Below, piece by piece: positions 789 to 8,870 of a stretch of DNA of 64,000 nucleotides (the first letter of the stretch is position 1; each line of letters opens with the position of its first letter). This DNA is from a bacterium. GTDB lineage: Bacteria; Patescibacteriota; Minisyncoccia; Phycocordibacterales; UBA2100. A model generated the notes under the pieces. It did no database searches and was not told the DNA's origin. It worked only from the letters and a program-made list of their open reading frames with translations. Where the stretch lies: positions 79,575-143,574 of the forward strand of contig RFQR01000001.1 of assembly GCA_009924895.1 (NCBI GenBank), given 5' to 3'. Position numbers and translations under genes: made by a program.

Positions 789-1586
789 ATGAAACGCGGA
801 GCCCGTCCAAAGGGAACTGTTAATAAAAATTGGTCCCCAGGACTTGCTTATGTTGTTGGGTTGATTACCTCTGACGGTTGTCTTTCTAAAAATGGTCGCC
901 ACATCGATATTACATCGAAAGATTACTCGCAAGTGAAGCTTTCGAAGAAAATATTAAACGTATCCGTAAAAATAGGTAAGAAAAACGCTGGGGCTAATAA
1001 CGAAGCGTATCGAATTCAACTTGGAGATGTGCTTTTCTACAGGTTTCTGCTCAATATTGGAATTACGCCTTCGAAATCAAAAACAATCCAAAATGTACGA
1101 GTCCCAAAAAAGTATTTTTCTCACTTTTTGAGAGGGTATTTTGATGGAGATGGAACTACTTCCTCGTATTACGATTCCAAGTTTCACAAAAGCTTTCGAT
1201 TTTACCTCTCTTTCATGTCAGCCAGTCCCCAATTTATTTTTTGGCTGAGAAATAAAATAAACCTTTTGGTAGGTGTAGAGGGGCACCTCAGTGGCTACTC
1301 TGATAGAAATTATCTGCAACTACGGTATGCAAAGAATGAGGCGTGTGTAGTGGCTCGCTACATGTATAAAAATAAGGACGATTTATTTTTGCCGAGAAAA
1401 TTTATTAAAATTCAAAAAACTCTCAAAATCATAGAGAATAGTTTGGTTAGTGGGCGCGGAAGCTCGGTCAAGCACTCAGAAAAATGCCGCCACATTTTTC
1501 TTCCGCCTGACCACGATTTTGCATCCCGTTCTACTGAACGGGTCCCAGCAAAATCTTTCTCGTCTCCCCGCGCCCAAAAAATCTAA
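789..1586 (+). CDS. Free-standing double-motif LAGLIDADG-family homing endonuclease. The conserved part is approximately 789-1440, and the ORF then reads on into a compositionally different tail
   Basis: Two LAGLIDADG-like motifs are present: LAYVVGLITSDGCL and LRGYFDGDGT. The region 789-1440 is strongly AT-rich compared with both flanks. The gene begins with its own Met, so it is not an intein. Confidence 0.7.
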   Translation: MKRGARPKGTVNKNWSPGLAYVVGLITSDGCLSKNGRHIDITSKDYSQVKLSKKILNVSVKIGKKNAGANNEAYRIQLGDVLFYRFLLNIGITPSKSKTIQNVRVPKKYFSHFLRGYFDGDGTTSSYYDSKFHKSFRFYLSFMSASPQFIFWLRNKINLLVGVEGHLSGYSDRNYLQLRYAKNEACVVARYMYKNKDDLFLPRKFIKIQKTLKIIENSLVSGRGSSVKHSEKCRHIFLPPDHDFASRSTERVPAKSFSSPRAQKI

Positions 1587-1776
1587 TCGCCCGAAGCCAT
1601 GCTTCGGTCTGAAGAGTTTTAGTGGACGATTATACTCTACGCACGAACTTTTTGACACTATAGCATCCCACACCGAAAGCATGGAAGCGTGGAATGATGC
1701 AATACGCGAGTTTTTGAGCCAAGATCGCAAGGCCGCAGTGCTACCCGTGCTCCTGTAGGCGCGGTAGAATGAGGGT

Positions 1777-2040
1777 ATGTGGAAGCGCAAAGACAACCTA
1801 ACCGATCTCACTGAACGACTCCCAAATGTCGATGTTTCAGCACCGCCCGCTCCTTCCGTCGACCAACAAGTCGTGAATCCCTATGGTGAAATCGTGACTC
1901 TCGGCAACAAGAAGCCCGAAAATCCCGCAAAAGAGATCAAGGGTATTCCTCTTGAACTTATGGAGTTAGTGAACGCAACGAAGCGTGCCGTCGAAAAAGC
2001 GTTTGACAGAGCCATCGAGCGACTGCAAAAGCACGAATAA
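1777..2040 (+). CDS. Hypothetical small protein, cargo of the putative integrated element
   Basis: An 87-aa ORF in tandem with the next ORF. No motif recognised. Confidence 0.35.
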   Translation: MWKRKDNLTDLTERLPNVDVSAPPAPSVDQQVVNPYGEIVTLGNKKPENPAKEIKGIPLELMELVNATKRAVEKAFDRAIERLQKHE

Positions 2041-2048
2041 CCACGAAC

Positions 2049-2567
2049 ATGAGAAAGCCAAAAGAAATCGAGGAACTGATCAAGCGAGCGATACGCGATG
2101 AGATCGCGCTGCACCCTCTCAAGTCCGTGGCGCAAGTACGCATCGCGCTTTTCAAGTATGGATACCAAGCCCTTGAAGGCCCGCTCGACTGGCACTATGT
2201 TGCCCGACTCATGCGTGCGATCCGCAAGGAAAATCTCAAGACACTTACGAATCAAAGTCGAGCCGAACGCATTGCGACACTCAAAGAACGACACCGCCTG
2301 ATCACACAAAAACTTGCCGACATTCTCGATGGTAAACCGATCTCACGAATGCACGACATCTCCTATCCCGCACACGCGGATCGAGTAGCCGCCGCAAACA
2401 CAATCCTCAAGTGGGATATGGCAATGTTTTTTGCGGAGGAACAATCACCATCCGTGCCTGGGGTAGAAAAAACTACGGGTGAAATTGTTCAGCCTATGAT
2501 ATTGAAAATCGAGAGTCGCGAGACGAATATCCCAAGCATTCCACAAAGAGCGTTCGTGCGGTTGTAA
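2049..2567 (+). CDS. Hypothetical protein, cargo of the putative integrated element
   Basis: A 172-aa ORF with protein-like composition, followed by a hairpin terminator. Confidence 0.45.
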   Translation: MRKPKEIEELIKRAIRDEIALHPLKSVAQVRIALFKYGYQALEGPLDWHYVARLMRAIRKENLKTLTNQSRAERIATLKERHRLITQKLADILDGKPISRMHDISYPAHADRVAAANTILKWDMAMFFAEEQSPSVPGVEKTTGEIVQPMILKIESRETNIPSIPQRAFVRL

Positions 2568-2574
2568 AACAAAA

Positions 2575-2597
2575 CCGCCCCTTGTTGAAGGGGGCGG
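2575..2597. terminator. Bidirectional intrinsic-terminator hairpin between convergent genes
   Basis: The hairpin is ccgcccc-ttgttgaa-gggggcgg. On the minus strand it is followed by ttttgtttt, and on the plus strand it is preceded by an A-run. Confidence 0.6.
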
Positions 2598-2605
2598 CTG
2601 AGGCG

Positions 2606-2968
2606 CTAGGCCTCAAGGTGCAGAGTGAATGGTGCTCCGCGACCGAAAGCGGGAACAGGGCCACGGACAACCTTTCCAGTCATGTCGATCTGGAAGGCGT
2701 CCTTGCCGAGATATACCCACGCGAGTTTGGTTTTCGCGTCGAACATCCCAACACCTTCCCAGCGTTCGGCGTACAGAGGTGTGCCATCCCTGCGGATGTG
2801 CAGTGCCTTCTTGTTTGCAGCATTCTCGACAGGGAGAATGCCACAGCAAAAGCGCGAAGATACGGGCAGGTACCCTTCTTCTCTCGAATAAAGGCGACGA
2901 ATCTCGGCCCGTTCCTCATCGGAAAGCCACGGCTCGCCTGTAGGCGATACTGGACTCCTTGGCATCAT
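2606..2968 (-). CDS. Hypothetical protein
   Basis: A 120-aa ORF on the strand convergent with 2049-2567. No motif recognised. Confidence 0.4.
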   Translation of the reverse strand: MMPRSPVSPTGEPWLSDEERAEIRRLYSREEGYLPVSSRFCCGILPVENAANKKALHIRRDGTPLYAERWEGVGMFDAKTKLAWVYLGKDAFQIDMTGKVVRGPVPAFGRGAPFTLHLEA

Positions 2969-3060
2969 TTTGCTCCTGTTTCCAACATCCTAGCCGGAAT
3001 CACGGCTGCAAGAATTGTAGCACGTTACAGGATGTCTGTCAAACAAAATCGTGAACCTTT

Positions 3061-3699
3061 TTACTCAAACCTCGTCAAAACTTTGTCCAAGATCTTGCTC
3101 CCACCTCCTGCCTCGAGCACTGCAGCATACAACGTCTCGAAGTTCGCTTTGTCTTTGTAAAATGCAAAGTCATGGCTCGCTCGCCGGATCTCTTCTCGGA
3201 GCGTTGTTGCACTCTCAAAATCCGCAACCTTGATGTTGTGCGCTACTGCCCACGATCGCAAAATCGGGAGATTGTTTTGCGCGATTAGTTCATTCGCAAG
3301 AGCAAGAGTGAATGCTAGCCGTCGATCGTCTGCGTTGAGGGTATTGAAATCTGATGTCTTGTTTGCCGTGTTTGGCGTTGTTGGGGCTTTCGGCGCGGAT
3401 GAGAAAATTGCCTCGCTTTTTGTGCTTTCAACGATCGTGAGGCCAGTATTCGGGCTTTGTGAGGGCATTATCGACGAGGGCGAGGTAACAGCAAACAGGA
3501 AAAAGAAAGCGAGAGCCGCAGTGCTGAAAATTGCCATTACATGCAGTCGAGATGGGGTGCGTAACCACGCGGGACGTATGAGACCGATCACAAGTCCTGC
3601 AAGAGAAAGTAAGGCGAGAGCCGCAAAGATGTTGTACATAGAAGTTCGCTTGATTGCTAAACAACCGTGCGAACTCTTTCCACACAAAAAGCCCGCCAC
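3061..3699 (-). CDS. Membrane-anchored hypothetical protein; the real start is probably the Met of MYNIFAALALL at about 3639
   Basis: A hydrophobic N-terminal helix is followed by a Ser/Thr/Pro-rich linker and a soluble domain. Confidence 0.45.
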   Translation of the reverse strand: MAGFLCGKSSHGCLAIKRTSMYNIFAALALLSLAGLVIGLIRPAWLRTPSRLHVMAIFSTAALAFFFLFAVTSPSSIMPSQSPNTGLTIVESTKSEAIFSSAPKAPTTPNTANKTSDFNTLNADDRRLAFTLALANELIAQNNLPILRSWAVAHNIKVADFESATTLREEIRRASHDFAFYKDKANFETLYAAVLEAGGGSKILDKVLTRFE

Positions 3700-3704
3700 G
3701 GGCT
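3686..3704 (-). terminator. Hairpin followed by a T-run on the minus strand, giving an intrinsic-terminator-like element
   Basis: The hairpin is agcccg-cca-cgggct with aaaaa immediately 5' on the plus strand, which is a T-run on the minus strand. It lies between the divergent 3061-3699 gene and the recombinase gene. Confidence 0.35.
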
Positions 3705-3921
3705 ACGGCTTGCGCCGTACGCACCAGTTTCCCGGTGCGGCAGAACATGCGACCTCATGACGGGTTCTTTATGCATGTTCTGCCTCCCACAACCATGCCG
3801 AGTCGTTGTTCGATTCGGTTTAGGTCGCCGCCCTTCCGGGCCGATATTTAGTTGTTCTTACATCGTACAGGATTTTTGCGATTTACTCCACTTCGTCGCT
3901 GATTTCCGCTATGATCACTAT

Positions 3922-5601
3922 ATGCAACTCAACACCCCTGCCGACCTCCTCGCGGCACTCAAAGATCTCCACACTCCCATCAATGACCAAGCCTCGATCA
4001 AGGAATATCGCTACGTTGTTTACATCCGAAAATCCACGGATCAAGAGGAAAAACAGGTGCGCTCACTGGCCGACCAGATACTCGAATGCAAAGAATATGC
4101 CGAGCGCGTAGGTATCACGATCCGCGACGAAGACATCGTGCAAGAAGCAGAATCTGCGAAAGAGCCGGATATCCGACCCAAGTTCCGCAAGATGATCAAA
4201 GACATCCAAGAGAAGGGTAAATACGACGGCATCCTCGCATGGCATCCCGATCGCTTGGCCCGCAACATGAAAGATGCGGGAGAAATCATCGACCTTCTCG
4301 ACAAGGGCACGATCAAGGATCTCAAGTTCGTGAGTTTTTCGTTTGAGAAAACAACCGCGGGCAAAATGCTCCTCGGCATCATGTTCGTTATGTCCAAAGA
4401 GTACAGCGACAAACTTTCCGACGACGTATCACGCGGGAACAAGCGGAGCATCGAGGAAGGCAAATACATCAACAAAAACAAACATGGCTATTTCAAGGAC
4501 GCGAATCAGCACATGCAGCCCGACGGCGAAAACTTCCTTTTGATCAAGCAAGCGTTCCGTATGCGCGTCGAGGGTAAGACGATGAAAGAAATATCGGAGT
4601 TTTTGAACACAAATCACTACATGAAATGGCACACAAGCAAACCTCGCGCGATATTCAAGTGGAATCCACAGACGATTGAAAAGACACTCAAAGATCCCTC
4701 ATACACCGGAATCGTCATGTACGGAAAATCCCATCGGGTAGCATTCGTGAATCTAATCGATGCGTACGGATTCCAACCGATGATCTCGGTGTCGGAGTTC
4801 ATGCAAATCAACAAACTTACACATGAAAAACAACTTTTCAAACTTGCTCGAAAGTATCGCAAGGGTGAAGACGTGAAAGCCGATCTCATGCGCGGCATGG
4901 TGATCTGCGACGGGTGCGGCGAGGCCATGACCGCAAGTATCACGCCCAAGAAAACACCACACGGCGTTACGCGCTATTTCTACTACCGCTGCGAATCAGA
5001 GGATTGCGAACGAAAACCACGATCGATTCGCGCAAAAGTCGTGCTCGCTCACATATTCGATTTTCTCGACACGCATCCGTTCTCCACGAAGGAAGCGTAC
5101 GAACATTATGCAAAAGAGATGGAGCGTGTGGCTGCCGAGCGCAATCGTACTGCTCAACAACTCTCACAGACACTCCGCCTCGAAAGAGGCCGGATTGAGG
5201 ATCACTTGATCACAACGAAAGAGTACTTGATCGAAGAAAAGGACGAAACGATCAAAAAATCATACAAGAGTGATGTGCTTCGCTACGAGGCCCGGATCAA
5301 AGAACTCAAGGGCGAGATCGAGAAAGCGCAGACCGTCGTAGCACGTCAAAAGGCCGCGATTCTGACATACGAAAACTTCCTCGAACTCATGGAAAAAATG
5401 CCTAAAATCCTACGTTCTATGCAGAATATGCAGGAGATGGATTTCCTGATCCGCAAAATCTACACGAACTTTACAATCGAGGGAAAAAACGTAGCAAAAT
5501 CAACGCTTTCTGCGCCATTCGATGCGCTTTACACCCTCAAAATCTCAAACGGTGGGCGCGGGGAGACTCGAACTCCCAAGCCTTTCGGCACACGCTTCTG
5601 A
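3922..5601 (+). CDS. Large serine recombinase (resolvase/invertase-type catalytic domain plus recombinase, zinc-ribbon and coiled-coil C-terminal region)
   Basis: MQLNTPADLL...YRYVVYIRKSTDQEEKQVRSLADQ shows the catalytic Ser motif. A Cys cluster (CDGCGE...CESEDC) and a long coiled coil are present. The track ORF begins earlier, but the Met at 3922 fits the domain start. The last roughly 16 codons lie inside the tRNA-Leu gene. Confidence 0.9.
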   Translation: MQLNTPADLLAALKDLHTPINDQASIKEYRYVVYIRKSTDQEEKQVRSLADQILECKEYAERVGITIRDEDIVQEAESAKEPDIRPKFRKMIKDIQEKGKYDGILAWHPDRLARNMKDAGEIIDLLDKGTIKDLKFVSFSFEKTTAGKMLLGIMFVMSKEYSDKLSDDVSRGNKRSIEEGKYINKNKHGYFKDANQHMQPDGENFLLIKQAFRMRVEGKTMKEISEFLNTNHYMKWHTSKPRAIFKWNPQTIEKTLKDPSYTGIVMYGKSHRVAFVNLIDAYGFQPMISVSEFMQINKLTHEKQLFKLARKYRKGEDVKADLMRGMVICDGCGEAMTASITPKKTPHGVTRYFYYRCESEDCERKPRSIRAKVVLAHIFDFLDTHPFSTKEAYEHYAKEMERVAAERNRTAQQLSQTLRLERGRIEDHLITTKEYLIEEKDETIKKSYKSDVLRYEARIKELKGEIEKAQTVVARQKAAILTYENFLELMEKMPKILRSMQNMQEMDFLIRKIYTNFTIEGKNVAKSTLSAPFDALYTLKISNGGRGETRTPKPFGTRF

Positions 5602-5634
5602 GACGTGAACGGTTACCAATTTCGCCACGCGCCC
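5553..5634 (-). tRNA. tRNA-Leu (anticodon CAG), type II with a long variable arm
   Basis: The reverse complement folds as a cloverleaf. The acceptor stem is GGGCGCG/CGCGCCC with discriminator A. There is a 3-bp D-stem with a GG loop. The anticodon stem CACGT/GCGTG carries the loop CU-CAG-AA. The variable stem-loop is GCC-GAAA-GGC. The T-arm is GGGAG-TTCGAGT-CTCCC. Confidence 0.9.
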
Positions 5635-5894: not shown

Positions 5895-8113
5895 CGCGAG
5901 AACCAGGAGCGAATCCATTGGGTAATACGCGAGAGGAATGAATCAGGTACGGCATTTACCGCAGTTGCTGTCTGTTCGAGGGGTGGTGTTTCTGGAGATG
6001 CGACAGGTTGTGTTTGAACCACTTTTAATTTTTTCTGTACGGCAAGTTTCTTTCCAATTTTTTTAGGAATAACCAGATTCGTTGATGACGCTACGGACGA
6101 GGTGCTTGATGCCGCTCCTACGAGAGGAGTGCTTGTTGCATCTTCTGGTGACGTAGTTGCGATTGCCAGATTTGCTGTGACAATCGTTGACGTGGTAGTG
6201 CTGGTCGCCATGGTTATGACTGGTGAGGTACTCGATACTGGTGTTCCGCCACCCCCTACAGCTACAGGAATCGGAAACGTCTGCAATACGGTGATCCAGC
6301 TACGGCCCGATGCTGCGGTCAAGGCATAACTCGTACTCCAGAGACGATTATCAACGCTGTCAGTTGTAGGACGAACCCCGCCATCAGGTTGTTGCGCAGC
6401 AGCAAGTGCGTCTTTCGGCAATGCACCGGTAGAAGTTTTCCAGGCGCTTTCGGGCGACGCGTGCGCTTCGCTAAAGGAGTTCAAAGCGGTCATGACCCAG
6501 CTCGTTGAATCGATGTTCCCCCAGCCGCCATCACTGTTTTGTACTGATTTAAGGTAACCAATCGATTTCCCGAGTCCTCTGTTTACTCCCGGCACCGCAA
6601 AAAGAGCGCCAAGCGCCTGTGTCGCCGCCGCAGTAACGTCGGGACTATTTTCCCATGAGCCGTTCGGACTTTGCTTTGAGAGTACGAACGCTGCAACTTT
6701 TTGAATAATGTCGTCGTTTTGAGTGTAACCTGCGTGTTCGAGCACGATGAGTCCGAAAATATCGTCGTTCACGAGTGATGGATCGCCGATTTGTGTACCA
6801 TCAAATGCAGCAATGATTGGTTTTATAACGTTGCGCGTAGACCCTTTGTAGGGGTCAATACCGAGTGCCATAAGTGCCATCGCATGACGCATATAGTCTG
6901 TCACACTCCCAAAATCACTATCGGGTTGCGGATTGAGCATAAATGCTTTGATTGCATCAGTTGGGCCTCTGTTTGCCGCAATACCGATTGCCGCCCAATC
7001 TGAATATAGTAGTGATCCAAACGAACCGTTTTGCTTTTGCTTGCTTGAAAGAAAGGCAAGTGCACCTGGTACATCAAATACCTTGGGCCCACTTGTTCCA
7101 GCAGGTGTTCCACCGCCGCCTGTTGCCTGAGACACCATGAGAGGAGTATTGGGAAAGTAGCCAGTATTTTGAATACCGGCGGCATAGGTGCCAGCAATAT
7201 TCACGATAACGGTTGCCACGCCGTTTGTATCAGTTGTTGAGGTTGCGAACTCGGTGGCGATAAAATTGCTATCGAACTGCACTACACCCACGACTTCATT
7301 CGGTGCAGGAACGTACGTGCCAGTTGCAGGATCGTACCGTTTAGCGGTGATAGTGACTGACTGTCCGGTTTGTATGCTTGAAACCGAGGTGGTGACTTGC
7401 CACGGTGATCCAAAAATGAGATAGACGGTGTCATTACCAGAAACGGTGTACGAGTCAATACCAACAGATGGAAATGTGTTGTTTACCGCATACGTCCAGT
7501 TGTTGCAATCAGGTGAAGTGGTTGCGGTAAAAGTAATACAGTTGAGGAGAAACGAACTAAAAGATGGGTAGTACTGAAGATCGCTCACCGCGAAACTGCT
7601 GTCAGTGGTATCGAGTGATGAGAGAAGCGCCAACACACTGCGCGCAGGTACGTTGTATGTGGTCGTAGTTCCTGTTGGAGTGATAGATACATCTGGTGTG
7701 GTAGTCCCTGGAAGTGTAAGAGTCACTGGCCCTACCGTCTGAGAGCTGCCACGGATGGTCAATGTGACAGTCTCTGGTGTAGGCACAGGTGGTGTGTTGT
7801 CGACAATGATAACGAGTGAGGATGTAGTAGTGCTGTTACCAGATACGTCTGTTGCGGTCCAAGTAACGGTAGTGGTACCAACAGGGAAAGTAGTAGGTGA
7901 GTAGGTAACTGTTGGATTTGGGTCAGTATCATCGGTTGCAGTTGCAGGTACTAAAAGTGGCGAAGCAGGAAAGGTGCTGGTGGCGAAGGTCTGGTCAGCA
8001 GGCGCTGTTATGGTCGGTGCGGTTGTGTCTGGGGTCGGTACTGGAAGGGCATGCGCTGATGGTGAGTATAAAAAGGGAAGGACAATAAGGACACTCAGTA
8101 GTATTTTTTTCAT
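5891..8113 (-). CDS. Secreted surface protein with an N-terminal HYR-like domain, prenyltransferase/alpha-alpha-toroid repeats and a Thr-rich C-terminal region
   Basis: A signal peptide (MKKILLSVLIVLPFL) is present. TVTWTATDVSGN is HYR-like. Repeated QxxDGGWG-type motifs occur (LSKQSPNGSWEN, VQNSDGGWGN, QQPDGGVRP). Confidence 0.7.
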   Translation of the reverse strand: MKKILLSVLIVLPFLYSPSAHALPVPTPDTTAPTITAPADQTFATSTFPASPLLVPATATDDTDPNPTVTYSPTTFPVGTTTVTWTATDVSGNSTTTSSLVIIVDNTPPVPTPETVTLTIRGSSQTVGPVTLTLPGTTTPDVSITPTGTTTTYNVPARSVLALLSSLDTTDSSFAVSDLQYYPSFSSFLLNCITFTATTSPDCNNWTYAVNNTFPSVGIDSYTVSGNDTVYLIFGSPWQVTTSVSSIQTGQSVTITAKRYDPATGTYVPAPNEVVGVVQFDSNFIATEFATSTTDTNGVATVIVNIAGTYAAGIQNTGYFPNTPLMVSQATGGGGTPAGTSGPKVFDVPGALAFLSSKQKQNGSFGSLLYSDWAAIGIAANRGPTDAIKAFMLNPQPDSDFGSVTDYMRHAMALMALGIDPYKGSTRNVIKPIIAAFDGTQIGDPSLVNDDIFGLIVLEHAGYTQNDDIIQKVAAFVLSKQSPNGSWENSPDVTAAATQALGALFAVPGVNRGLGKSIGYLKSVQNSDGGWGNIDSTSWVMTALNSFSEAHASPESAWKTSTGALPKDALAAAQQPDGGVRPTTDSVDNRLWSTSYALTAASGRSWITVLQTFPIPVAVGGGGTPVSSTSPVITMATSTTTSTIVTANLAIATTSPEDATSTPLVGAASSTSSVASSTNLVIPKKIGKKLAVQKKLKVVQTQPVASPETPPLEQTATAVNAVPDSFLSRITQWIRSWFSR

Positions 8114-8140
8114 GATAGTAATGACGTTAATAATGAATAA

Positions 8141-8635
8141 TTATTTCTGTGTTTCGTACCTCCACTCGATGCTGTCGCCAGGAGCGACCATTTTTTGTGA
8201 AGCACCAAGATCTGATGAGGTTCCATTGACGTACAGGAACCAATACATGCCGTTTTCATTTTTTCGACCCGCAACAGAGTCGACGAAGTCTCCTAATGAT
8301 GGGTACGCACGAGAAGTGAAGTTTATTTTACCGATACTACGCTCGTATTGCATGGTCTCGAGTACGGTCTGGTTCTTTTTAGCGACCATTCGCACGATAG
8401 TTGGTAGCTCTGAGGCCTGTGTTACTTCTTTTTGAGGCGAGGTAATTCGAGTAGGAAGTGGCGATGGCGCGATGCGTGGTTGGTTCTCGGTCGAGGTAAT
8501 TGTTTCTTTTTTCTGGAGCGCAGGGGCGAGATAGGCATCTTGAGTGTATTGATAGGGTTGCTGCGATGAAAGTGCGCCAGAGCCGATGCCGACGATAAAA
8601 AGTACAAGAACAATGAGAAGTATTTTTTGGTTCAT
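8141..8635 (-). CDS. Signal-anchored protein with a DUF4430-like C-terminal domain
   Basis: The start was chosen at MNQKILLIVLVLF. The C-terminus GMYWFLYVNGTSSDLGASQKMVAPGDSIEWRYE resembles DUF4430. Confidence 0.5.
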   Translation of the reverse strand: MNQKILLIVLVLFIVGIGSGALSSQQPYQYTQDAYLAPALQKKETITSTENQPRIAPSPLPTRITSPQKEVTQASELPTIVRMVAKKNQTVLETMQYERSIGKINFTSRAYPSLGDFVDSVAGRKNENGMYWFLYVNGTSSDLGASQKMVAPGDSIEWRYETQK

Positions 8636-8870
8636 ATAAAAAGCTCTGCTGGTGCAGAGTCTTGAGAAGTGCCGTACTAGCACAAGATCCTGCTCGGGAA
8701 TTTTTCTTCTTTGAAGACCGGACTTGTCCACGTAAGGTGGCATTACCGTTGCGGCACAGTGGAGGAATCACCTGTCCGTTGAAAACAGTTAGGACACCTC
8801 ACTTCCACAAAGAAGTGTGAGCATCATACACCCGCAAGCACTCGAGTCAAATATATGCTTGAATGAGTTC

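Follow-up and report, generated by a model that had tools for sequence, protein, structure and literature searches.

The locus raises the question of how a large serine recombinase (LSR) gene came to end inside a tRNA gene, and of where the corresponding integrated element starts and stops. All positions given here refer to the window, that is, the whole 64-kb stretch of DNA that was analyzed. Our best overall explanation, to which we assign a probability of roughly 80%, is that an element of a CPR family lies at approximately 1626-5555 and encodes an LSR with the phage-type attachment site (attP) inside its open reading frame (ORF), such that the gene is split on integration.

The recombinase gene and its target tRNA

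The features at the right end of the element are as follows.

3922..5601, plus strand: LSR gene in its integrated, tail-less form, 559 aa plus stop (ATG at 3922, domains, PDB matches)
5553..5633, minus strand: tRNA-Leu(CAG), the integration target, attB (ARAGORN, Rfam)
5552..5559, plus strand: right junction (attL) core, GTGGGCGC, matching the extreme tRNA 3' end (discriminator/CC plus first acceptor bases)

An intact LSR ORF converges on the minus-strand tRNA-Leu gene, as a first-pass annotation of this DNA had proposed, and overlaps it by 49-51 nt. ARAGORN called the tRNA at 5551-5634 on the minus strand, encoded CC included, in agreement with the Rfam tRNA model (50.6 bits against 5553-5634). 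That annotation was also right in assigning the last LSR codons and the stop to the tRNA gene: the protein ends in GGRGETRTPKPFGTRF, which is what the strand complementary to the acceptor and T arms encodes. Thus, the first 543-545 codons are element DNA, the last ~15 codons and the stop (~5557-5601) are host tRNA complement, and the tRNA itself is host DNA except for its last few 3' bases. The overlap is not due to chance, because it recurs in 60 of 81 related loci, where convergent tRNAs with 14 anticodons (tRNA-Pro, Leu, Val, Asp, Ala, Glu, Gln and Gly) are overlapped by 11-69 nt.

Pfam searches identified Resolvase, Recombinase and Zn_ribbon_recom domains in the LSR: the N-terminal resolvase catalytic domain (PF00239, 5.9e-23) at residues 32-182 and, in the C-terminal part, PF07508 (1.1e-10) and PF13408 (1e-6). 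Both the R-K-S motif with the serine nucleophile (R36, K37, S38) and the zinc-ribbon cysteines C329, C332, C357 and C362 are invariant across the 36 family members compared. PDB searches matched the protein to the integrases of SPbeta (2.6e-12) and TP901-1, and an AlphaFold2 model of an LSR homologue has long helices at 379-464 (coiled-coil insertion).

The natural C-terminus lies at the opposite end of the element

The left end of the element begins with three features.

1621..1758, plus strand: displaced LSR tail exon, 45 codons (SGRLYSTHELFDTIASHTESMEAWNDAIREFLSQDRKAAVLPVLL) plus stop (phase, homology, conserved length)
1622..1629, plus strand: left junction (attR) core, GTGGaCGa, matching the tRNA 3' terminus in LSR codon phase
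1777..2040, plus strand: orf87 (KDNLTD...GEIVTLG), the best conserved of the family's accessory genes, starting 18 nt past the tail stop

Homologues of the peptide encoded at 1621-1755 were found upstream of the LSR on the same strand, one per source, in 38 sources, at a distance of 2.6-9.3 kb from the tRNA. Directly 5' of each tail is a block of 4-11 nt identical to the tRNA terminus and matching the tRNA of that very locus. In an unbiased test of codon phase, the tail was in the LSR frame in 12/12 unambiguous loci (chance ~2e-6), with five further loci having cores too short to be phased unambiguously. Joining the LSR body and the tail of the window at the core yields a 588-aa ORF, followed by orf87. 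Among the 38 sources, such a fusion is present only in L088, a circular contig, and at a single tandem joint, L028, where an in-frame LSR 3' end plus tail stands at the contig start, immediately left of the next element. L088 is a contig of 4,929 nt with a 30-nt terminal overlap that carries a single 577-aa ORF (LSR plus tail), then an orf87 homologue, and also a LOOT RNA, with no tRNA. It is the one circular contig representing the excised form, and a tandem array could yield an identical graph cycle. Since the tail is in phase and is fused to the LSR in L088, the core of attP falls within the LSR ORF, 45 codons before its natural stop, and recombination with the tRNA 3' terminus therefore splits the LSR gene. 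The attP predicted for the window covers coding sequence, starting ~10 codons before the core and ending ~13 codons after it, and has the first ~40 nt of the tail doubling as its P' arm. It is collinear with that of L088 (48/75 nt identical, no gaps).

The aligned tails were exactly 45 codons long in 22/22 cases, with E9, L10 and N25 invariant, and stops interrupt the other two frames in 22/22 and 21/22 copies. In 10/10 compared pairs, pS exceeded pN (pS 0.37-0.95, pN 0.14-0.43), and dN/dS was 0.09-0.49 for the six pairs with unsaturated dS. These comparisons show that purifying selection acts on the tail exon. No Pfam or PDB matches were found for the tail. When a full-length homologue was modelled with AlphaFold2, confidence was good to approximately residue 525 and low in the tail except for one helix, with no confident docking of the tail. 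On this model, the 559-aa integrated ORF would keep every predicted folded domain, and removal of the tail would cost none.

Boundaries of the element

The left junction was placed at 1622-1629 because of the in-phase, conserved 45-codon tail, the fused ORF in circular L088 and the host-gene boundary in L092. In this close relative (LSR 72% identical), only 8 nt separate the beginning of the tail from the start codon of an EPSP synthase gene of the host, and the tail junction and attL have the core GTGGGCAT in common. The element in the window spans ~1626-5555, a length of 3,930 bp, at the extreme 3' end of tRNA-Leu(CAG), with two mismatches between its cores (GTGGaCGa at 1622-1629 vs GTGGGCGC at 5552-5559). 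It is organized like an integrated element, with the tRNA whole on one side, the tRNA end repeated on the other and variable cargo in between. The first-pass annotation had likewise placed an element at the tRNA 3' end, with the recombinase gene carrying the attachment site in its 3' end. This holds, with the core even inside the ORF, but the proposed left end and attachment core do not, and the proposed size of ~4.1 kb becomes 3.93 kb when measured from the left junction at 1622-1629.

Two features outside the element lie directly to its left.

789..1449, plus strand: free-standing LAGLIDADG homing-endonuclease gene, GC ~38%, not part of the element (ORF, domain, composition)
1450..1620, no strand assigned: separate insertion of ~170 nt duplicating the tRNA 3' end, not part of the LSR element (same type of insertion beside LSR-free tRNAs)

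The insertion opens with a decayed repeat, in direct orientation, of the tRNA 3' end as far as the T-loop (1450-1469). Next come two hairpins that start with GTCA (from 1467), then the tRNA 3' end in inverted orientation (1557-1576) and a hairpin resembling a terminator (1591-1607). When the LSR element came in, this insertion was what flanked the tRNA on its 3' side. The LAGLIDADG open frame runs on into the insertion, to 1586.

Alternative explanations

These neighboring features bear on where the element ends. The original proposal was a 4.1-kb element bounded by the 10-nt repeat at 1450-1459, with crossover in the tRNA acceptor/T-arm and 1450-1620 included. We consider this improbable. The 10-mer GTGGGCGCGG is real and rare, with exactly two copies in 64 kb (at 1450 and 5552) vs 0.16 expected; in nine loci the tRNA 3' end is repeated directly over 19-22 nt, with GTCAC after it, immediately left of the element, and joining the window at the T-loop gives an open frame of 646 aa. 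However, the same repeat and GTCAC insertion is also found 3' of intact Leu-UAA, Cys, Lys and Val tRNAs with no recombinase near, whereas it is absent from many elements (e.g., L092, L014, L003 and L011) and the motif is lacking from circular L088. Moreover, T-loop joins in other loci run into early stops, and the L092 tail adjoins a host gene directly. The repeat thus belongs to the separate ~170-nt insertion rather than marking the left end of the element. An extension further left to ~700, which would take in the LAGLIDADG gene and had been put forward as the other option, is scarcely credible. The composition across 600-1450 is AT-rich and foreign-looking, and the reported switch in base composition near the repeat was confirmed (GC rising from ~38% to ~50% around 1400-1500). 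Yet the tRNA 3' end has no additional copy to the left of 1450, the elements of the 37 other tail-bearing sources lack a LAGLIDADG gene, and the sole LAGLIDADG homologue, in L005, is situated beyond tRNA-Leu, outside the L005 element. In addition, both the tail junction and the separate insertion lie between the LAGLIDADG gene and the element.

Even with the boundaries at the tail and the tRNA, the tail could be an independent small gene at the element end whose phase match is coincidental, with the LSR not being split at all. Gene callers do annotate ORFs of 49-69 aa over the tail, a GTG at 1450 opens a 102-aa ORF in the window, and non-ATG starts are possible in loci with longer upstream open frames. 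We nonetheless regard this as highly improbable given the phase agreement in all unambiguous loci and the LSR fusions in L088 and at the L028 joint. Furthermore, homology begins exactly at the tRNA-matching core, and in many loci a stop precedes the tail by just 1-8 sense codons, too few for it to have a separate start codon. An integrated element with a split LSR could also be a fossil or domesticated one, the copy or the family being immobile, the truncated LSR inactive or repurposed and the tail a relic. No empty site or circular junction was found for the window element; all 11 contigs (from at least five samples) with the exact right-flank protein carry it, and its cores are mismatched as described above. 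The first-pass annotation had named shared cargo and synteny with no empty site among related genomes as evidence against a mobile element; this is the situation within the source population, but at the family level the loci differ in cargo, size and target tRNA. The LSR body and the tail are intact both here and across the family, pS exceeds pN in the tail, and a circular form and tandem joints exist. We deem the fossil reading, for copy or family, unlikely, although the window copy itself may currently be quiescent.

Cargo and occurrence of the family

Between orf87 and the LSR gene, the element carries the following.

2049..2567, plus strand: orf172, cargo/accessory gene, shared by a few related elements (L006, L008, L010, L094)
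2575..2597, no strand assigned: GC-rich terminator-like hairpin between the convergent orf172 and orf120 (sequence)
2606..2968, minus strand: orf120, orphan cargo ORF (ORF call)
3061..3699, minus strand: orf212, cargo, likely start the ATG at 3639
3704..3826, minus strand: LOOT RNA (Rfam RF03000), 73.2 bits vs a gathering score of 46.4, full length 1-121

The four small ORFs and the hairpins reported earlier on the element side are all present. Domain searches found no family match for orf172. An N-terminal hydrophobic stretch (...NIFAALALLSLAGLVIGL...) was judged by eye in orf212, the N-terminal part of which is conserved in L008 and L061. The cargo of relatives varies and includes ThsB_TIR, Abi_C, AAA ATPase and SEC-C. 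The LOOT RNA is divergent from the LSR gene and is followed by a terminator-like hairpin at 3690-3704. Its Rfam entry (RF03000) gives it as an sRNA gene only, and the main text of the 2017 publication behind that entry contains no discussion of LOOT under this name. The window copy fits the full model, and in our dataset LOOT is a regular passenger of the LSR element family: 26 of 84 sources carry it, and 26 of 27 matches sit 75-3,775 nt upstream of the LSR.

At E<=1e-10, 2,947 LSR homologues were found, with C-termini that read as translated tRNA complements. Confirmed matches numbered 205 among the genomes of 185,579 species (at most one genome per species), and nearly all of the 80 loci kept were labelled Patescibacteria/CPR. 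The target tRNA, the cargo and the size (2.6-9.3 kb) of the elements vary across the family. The split-LSR arrangement is a trait of this family, which is widespread in Patescibacteria (CPR).

Proposed mechanism of integration

attP and the tRNA 3' terminus recombine at their short common core, GGTGG.... After integration, the LSR body stays beside the tRNA and reads into the tRNA complement to the first chance stop (ending in ETRTPKPFGTRF), and the 45-codon tail, together with the tightly linked orf87, comes to lie at the opposite end of the element (1621-2040). The natural LSR tail is in this way swapped for tRNA-encoded residues. We propose that the full-length LSR would be produced solely while the element is excised or circular and would be the integration-proficient enzyme. 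In the integrated state, activity may be altered or damped by the exchange of the tail and by the separation of orf87 from the LSR transcript. This would be an integration-dependent switch akin to that of Mx8 IntP/IntX or of archaeal SSV-type integrases. The copy in the window is probably stably resident in its population. It is possible, though we put this forward only tentatively, that splitting of the LSR gene acts as a switch of directionality, with the 588-aa protein and orf87 co-transcribed only when the element is excised and driving integration, and with the tail-swapped enzyme of the integrated state having a different activity or none.

Relation to known integrases

The LSR has the same domain set as known large serine integrases (SPbeta SprA/YokA, TP901-1, A118, Bxb1, phiC31), and the attachment core of its family, which appears from the junction comparisons to be just 4-11 bp, would fit a serine integrase better than a tyrosine one. 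In classical serine integrases, attP lies beside the integrase gene, not inside it, and to our knowledge they do not target tRNA genes. In the window clade, by contrast, attP is inside the gene and tRNA 3' ends are the targets.

The closest parallels are found among tyrosine integrases, the only ones for which the attP-in-ORF design has otherwise been described. Phage Mx8 targets a tRNA-Asp gene. Its attP lies within the 3' part of int, and integration provides a new 3' end and hence a changed, not an inactivated, protein (IntP/IntX; PMC6070905). As in Mx8, the C-terminus of an otherwise complete integrase is replaced in our family (559 aa integrated vs 588 aa reconstructed in the window), but Mx8 has a tyrosine integrase and is a single phage lineage, whereas the arrangement reported here defines an LSR clade with thousands of members. 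Archaeal viruses and plasmids carry tyrosine integrases of the SSV type, called 'suicidal', which Badel et al. (2020, PMC7253208) give as 'so far restricted to archaea'. They share with the window family an attP in the integrase ORF, a tRNA target, a gene partitioned to both ends of the element and a tandem joint that restores it. However, the window LSR is a serine recombinase in bacteria, and thus works alike without being a member of that group. Moreover, SSV-type integration leaves two inactive pseudogenes, whereas the LSR loses only its last 45 codons, and one ORF, intact in most loci, is predicted to keep all domains. Islander-type tRNA islands similarly occupy the tRNA 3' end with the integrase adjacent and the tRNA intact, but they use tyrosine integrases and displace a tRNA fragment of tens of nt, compared to the 4-11-nt repeat of the window family. 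A 2020 paper (PMC7192596) lists only 14 candidate cases out of 297, with proof still required.

Implications

The clade breaks two standard statements about serine integrases, that they avoid tRNA genes and that attP lies outside the integrase gene, and shows that gene-partitioning integration evolved independently in bacteria with a different recombinase chemistry. Annotation pipelines that use integrated copies report a chimeric LSR C-terminus. Serine integrases are valued tools for genome engineering and serve as textbook cases of simple, directional recombination, and our findings provide testable attP/attB predictions for dozens of new ones. If the proposed directionality switch is true, a large serine integrase would be controlled without any separate recombination directionality factor of the classical kind. 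The clade concerned is unusual among serine integrases in having tRNA genes as attB, and it carries the orphan LOOT RNA. This RNA is here given a genomic home, and a main class of small mobile elements with cargo, partly for defence, is identified in the reduced genomes of CPR bacteria.

Recombinase and tRNA-Leu at the right end of the element

The first-pass annotation had described a recombinase gene running into a tRNA-Leu gene, a pair of 10-mers and a change in base composition. All of these features were found again, and the kind of element that it proposed also stood, whereas its left end and its att core did not.

Features at the right end of the element:

3922 (ATG) to 5601 (end), plus strand: recombinase ORF with Resolvase, Recombinase and Zn_ribbon_recom domains
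5551-5634, minus strand: tRNA-Leu(CAG), called by ARAGORN

The Rfam tRNA model matched at 5553-5634 with 50.6 bits, and the final 16-17 recombinase codons read the strand complementary to the tRNA acceptor and T arm. When solved structures were searched, the recombinase matched the serine integrases of SPbeta and TP901-1, and by every domain criterion it is a large serine integrase. The 10-mer GTGGGCGCGG occurs in the window at 1450 and 5552 only, with 0.16 copies expected, and the GC content switches near 1450.

Homologues of the recombinase numbered 2,947 at E≤1e-10, those with names being Parcubacteria/Patescibacteria, and the C-termini of nearly all resemble translated tRNA complements (...GGRGETRTP.., ..RTRTCDL.., ..ERT). 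With one genome scanned per species, 205 relatives were confirmed; 80 loci were retained and run through ARAGORN. With the window counted, 60 of 81 loci had a convergent tRNA whose 3' end was overlapped by the recombinase ORF over 11-69 nt: Pro in 23, Leu in 16, Val in 10, Asp in 4, Ala in 3, Glu in 2, and Gln and Gly in 1 each. At most of the remaining 21 loci either the contig end was reached or the recombinase ORF passed straight through a tRNA. Judged from these comparisons, overlap of recombinase and tRNA is a trait of the family. A search of 2.9 million viral contigs gave only two relatives, both integrated at tRNA-Gly, which sets the elements apart from ordinary prophages.

For the comparison that the first-pass annotation had proposed, an unoccupied tRNA-Leu was sought in the source population. 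No empty site was found there, the element being present in 11 of 11 contigs from at least five samples. A metagenome scan for close relatives returned only three distant loci.

A tail exon marks the left junction

Homologues of the missing end of the recombinase gene were found in a circular relative. This Logan contig (L088) is 4,929 nt long with a 30-nt terminal overlap, that is, a cycle in the assembly graph, and it lacks a tRNA. Its recombinase has 577 aa and runs past ...NGGR for 42 more residues (...KHTTLELFET...EFLSEEIRLPLVEIRL, then stop), with a small ORF following 18 nt after the stop codon. Both of these pieces, tail and small ORF, have homologues at the left end of the element in the window, at 1621-1758 and 1777-2040 (orf87), respectively.

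Feature at the left end of the element:

1621-1758, plus strand: tail exon, homologous to the C-terminus of the circular contig's recombinase, reading ...SGRLYSTHELFDTIASHTESMEAWNDAIREFLSQDRKAAVLPVLL and stop

A profile of the tail found exactly one copy per source in 38 sources. The copy always precedes the recombinase on the same strand and lies 2.6-9.3 kb from the tRNA end (3,930 bp in the window). The tail was exactly 45 codons long in 22 of 22 aligned copies; residues E9, L10 and N25 did not vary, and W24 hardly did. Over codons beyond a possible DNA-site constraint, the synonymous proportion exceeded the nonsynonymous one in 10 of 10 pairs, dN/dS was 0.09-0.49 in the six pairs with unsaturated dS, and the two remaining reading frames were rich in stops; these patterns indicate that the tail is under purifying selection. 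In many loci a stop lies only 1-8 codons 5' of the tail, so the tail has no start codon of its own; only in the circular contig is it preceded by 544 recombinase codons. A protein search with a single tail sequence gave no match, the tail-profile search gave 8 small ORFs only, and searches of PDB and PHROG gave no informative match.

Each tail is directly preceded by 4-11 nt that are identical to the tRNA 3' terminus of the same locus, for example CAATTGGTCGG in L014, GTGGGCG in L003 and ATGGCGG in L021, three of the related loci; the window's cores are GTGGaCGa versus GTGGGCGC. Under position-anchored, phase-blind matching, 12 of 12 unambiguous loci had their best match at the tRNA 3' end, in the recombinase frame; in five further loci the cores were too short for a decision. 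In the closest relative with flanks (L092, recombinase 72% identical), the core GTGGGCAT is common to the tail start and attL, and 8 nt separate the start of the tail exon from the start codon of a host EPSP synthase gene. Joining the window's two cores gives an ORF of 588 aa, and the resulting attP is collinear with that observed in the circular contig (48 of 75 nt identical, ungapped). The predicted attP junction is ...CCCTCAAAATCTCAAACGGTGG joined to ACGATTATACTCTACGCACGAACTTTTTGAC..., and the predicted empty site ...GGTCTGAAGAGTTTTAGTGG joined to GCGCGGGGAGACTCGAACTCCC.... Both junctions can be placed to within a few bases on sequence grounds.

A second uninterrupted joint was seen at the start of another related contig (L028:1-300), where the recombinase 3' end is fused in frame to a tail directly left of the next element. 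Two tandem copies would be expected to meet in this way, and the joint recreates a full-length gene. A further candidate, in which a recombinase abuts the tail exon of the next element (L094:3-1690), was rejected as a reconstituted joint: the upstream recombinase is of a different subtype and out of frame with the tail, and the arrangement is tandem accretion only.

From the tail exon, the phase of the cores, the flanks of L092 and the two uninterrupted joints, we conclude that the attP core is inside the recombinase ORF and that integration at the extreme 3' end of the tRNA splits the gene in frame. The comparisons likewise indicate that an uninterrupted recombinase-tail-orf87 form exists.

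The repeat at 1450 belongs to a separate insertion

The first-pass annotation had placed the left boundary of the element at the repeat at 1450-1459. This repeat is part of a distinct structure between the LAGLIDADG gene and the tail exon, and the left junction is at the tail exon.

Features left of the tail exon:

789 to ~1449, plus strand: free-standing LAGLIDADG homing-endonuclease gene (PHROG endonuclease family, 1e-32)
1450-1469: decayed direct repeat of the tRNA 3' end, reaching as far as the T-loop
between 1450-1469 and 1557-1576: two hairpins beginning GTCA
1557-1576: inverted copy of the tRNA 3' end, 20 nt, 90% complementary
after 1557-1576, last in the region 1450-1620: terminator-like hairpin

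As a single strand, the region 1450-1620 has a very stable fold (z = -8), and the same arrangement is found just left of the elements in nine other loci, with 19-22-nt repeats ending ..CTYG/GTCAC. The repeat, which stops in the T-loop, flanks the insertion proper; this opens with GTCAC, a hairpin and GCGACCCC, and has an inner inverted copy of the T-arm/acceptor. Insertions of the same kind occur in recombinase-free neighbourhoods, 3' of intact tRNA-Leu(UAA), Cys, Lys and Val genes, many recombinase elements are without one, and the outer stem covaries with the neighbouring tRNA, with compensatory changes in 10 of 16 pairs. We therefore regard 1450-1620 as a separate insertion, ~150-180 nt long, by which the tRNA 3' end is duplicated. 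Further sites in related loci are L017:4570 and 5484, L024:3508 (minus), L061:15107 (minus), L067:8047 (minus), 8379 and 8559, and L025:15903 and 19268. Neither an Rfam match nor an associated gene was found for the insertion, which may be a miniature integrative element or else a structured RNA. In the window it made up the 3' flank of the tRNA, into which the recombinase element inserted later.

Two other readings of this region were considered. A crossover in the T-loop, at ..CTYG/GTCAC, would give an open frame of 646 aa in the window, but early stops arise in the seven other loci where the frame crosses the join, and in L046, another related locus, the ORF stops before the join. L092, the circular contig and the insertions without a recombinase also speak against this crossover, which was rejected. 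The shared acceptor stem, the 20-nt inverted tRNA 3' copy and the stable fold (z = -8) had pointed to an intron-bearing tRNA or pseudo-tRNA at 1452-1576; no cloverleaf and no Rfam match were found, and the region proved to be one copy of the recurrent insertion.

An alternative left end that included the LAGLIDADG gene had also been put forward. The gene lies further out, and no additional copy of the tRNA end was found to its left. It has 38% GC in a genome of ~50% GC and adjoins the tRNA-Leu(CAG) 3' flank, its frame continuing into the duplicated tRNA end. A homologue (42% identical) lies beside a tRNA-Leu(UAG) in a related locus (L005:11713-12330, minus strand).

On the other side of the element, PemK-like and YafQ-like toxin genes (per the annotation of L081:5169-5495 and 7950-8207) are interspersed with the host-chromosome Mur ligase genes that adjoin it. 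Further right, an AdoCbl riboswitch match at 8706-8815 (minus strand) was below threshold (36 bits versus a gathering score of 50, E = 8e-4). A DUF4430 gene (8141-8743, minus strand) follows directly downstream of it and, given this position, the match may be a genuine, divergent riboswitch.

Contents of the element

The orf87 family (M.KKDNLTDVV..LP..proline-rich linker..QQVV..GEIVTLG; 38-100 aa) has homologues in 27 loci and no database match. In 23 of 28 loci its start is 11-20 nt past the tail stop codon, which makes it the next gene downstream of the full-length recombinase in the attP form and a candidate accessory or directionality factor. The four small ORFs gave no informative match in Pfam, PHROGs, PADLOC or NCBIfam; the sole match of orf212 was an unannotated PHROG, and orf172 and orf120 had none that was informative.

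Cargo of related elements included a SEC-C protein as well as ThsB_TIR with 8xMP, Abi_C or an AAA_15/21 ATPase (L092:9054-9981; L086:1232-2404; L088:118-1821). The latter proteins suggest that anti-phage defence genes are carried by some of these small elements. No defence-type match of this kind was obtained for the cargo in the window.

Features between orf212 and the recombinase gene:

3704-3826, minus strand: full-length LOOT RNA (RF03000, 73 bits)
3690-3704, minus strand: terminator-like hairpin after LOOT

A covariance model built from five LOOT copies and run over 84 sources found the motif at 27 places in 26 sources, including the circular contig; 26 of the 27 sit 75-3,775 nt upstream of a recombinase, on either strand. 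The orphan LOOT motif thus seems to belong to this element family. A related element in another genome contains two matches to the type III hammerhead ribozyme (L003:4127-4181 and 6466-6520, minus strand), scoring 48.8 and 52.1 bits, just over the threshold of 48.5.

A split serine integrase

An AlphaFold2 model of the full-length homologue was confident to about residue 525; it gave the tail a pLDDT of 30-50, one helix and no confident position. By this model, the integrated ORF retains every predicted folded domain. We infer that the 588-aa protein would be produced from the excised form only and would be the integrating enzyme. In the integrated form, 3-22 arbitrary tRNA-encoded residues would replace the tail, with no orf87 downstream, and activity may be altered or reduced.

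This split-gene strategy works like that of two tyrosine-integrase systems, whereas the enzyme here is a serine integrase. In the 'suicidal' SSV-type integrases of archaea, integration into a tRNA splits the int ORF, within which attP lies; these integrases have been described as 'so far restricted to archaea' (PMC7253208). In phage Mx8, attP is also within int, and integration gives the gene a new 3' end but does not inactivate the enzyme (PMC6070905). In 2020, 14 of 297 candidate cases were given as needing proof (PMC7192596). In the full-text literature searched, whose coverage is incomplete so that an earlier account may exist elsewhere, neither a serine integrase whose attP is internal nor this CPR recombinase family was found described. 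The locus belongs to a large clade of bacterial serine integrases that target tRNA genes, partition their own gene and carry the orphan LOOT RNA.
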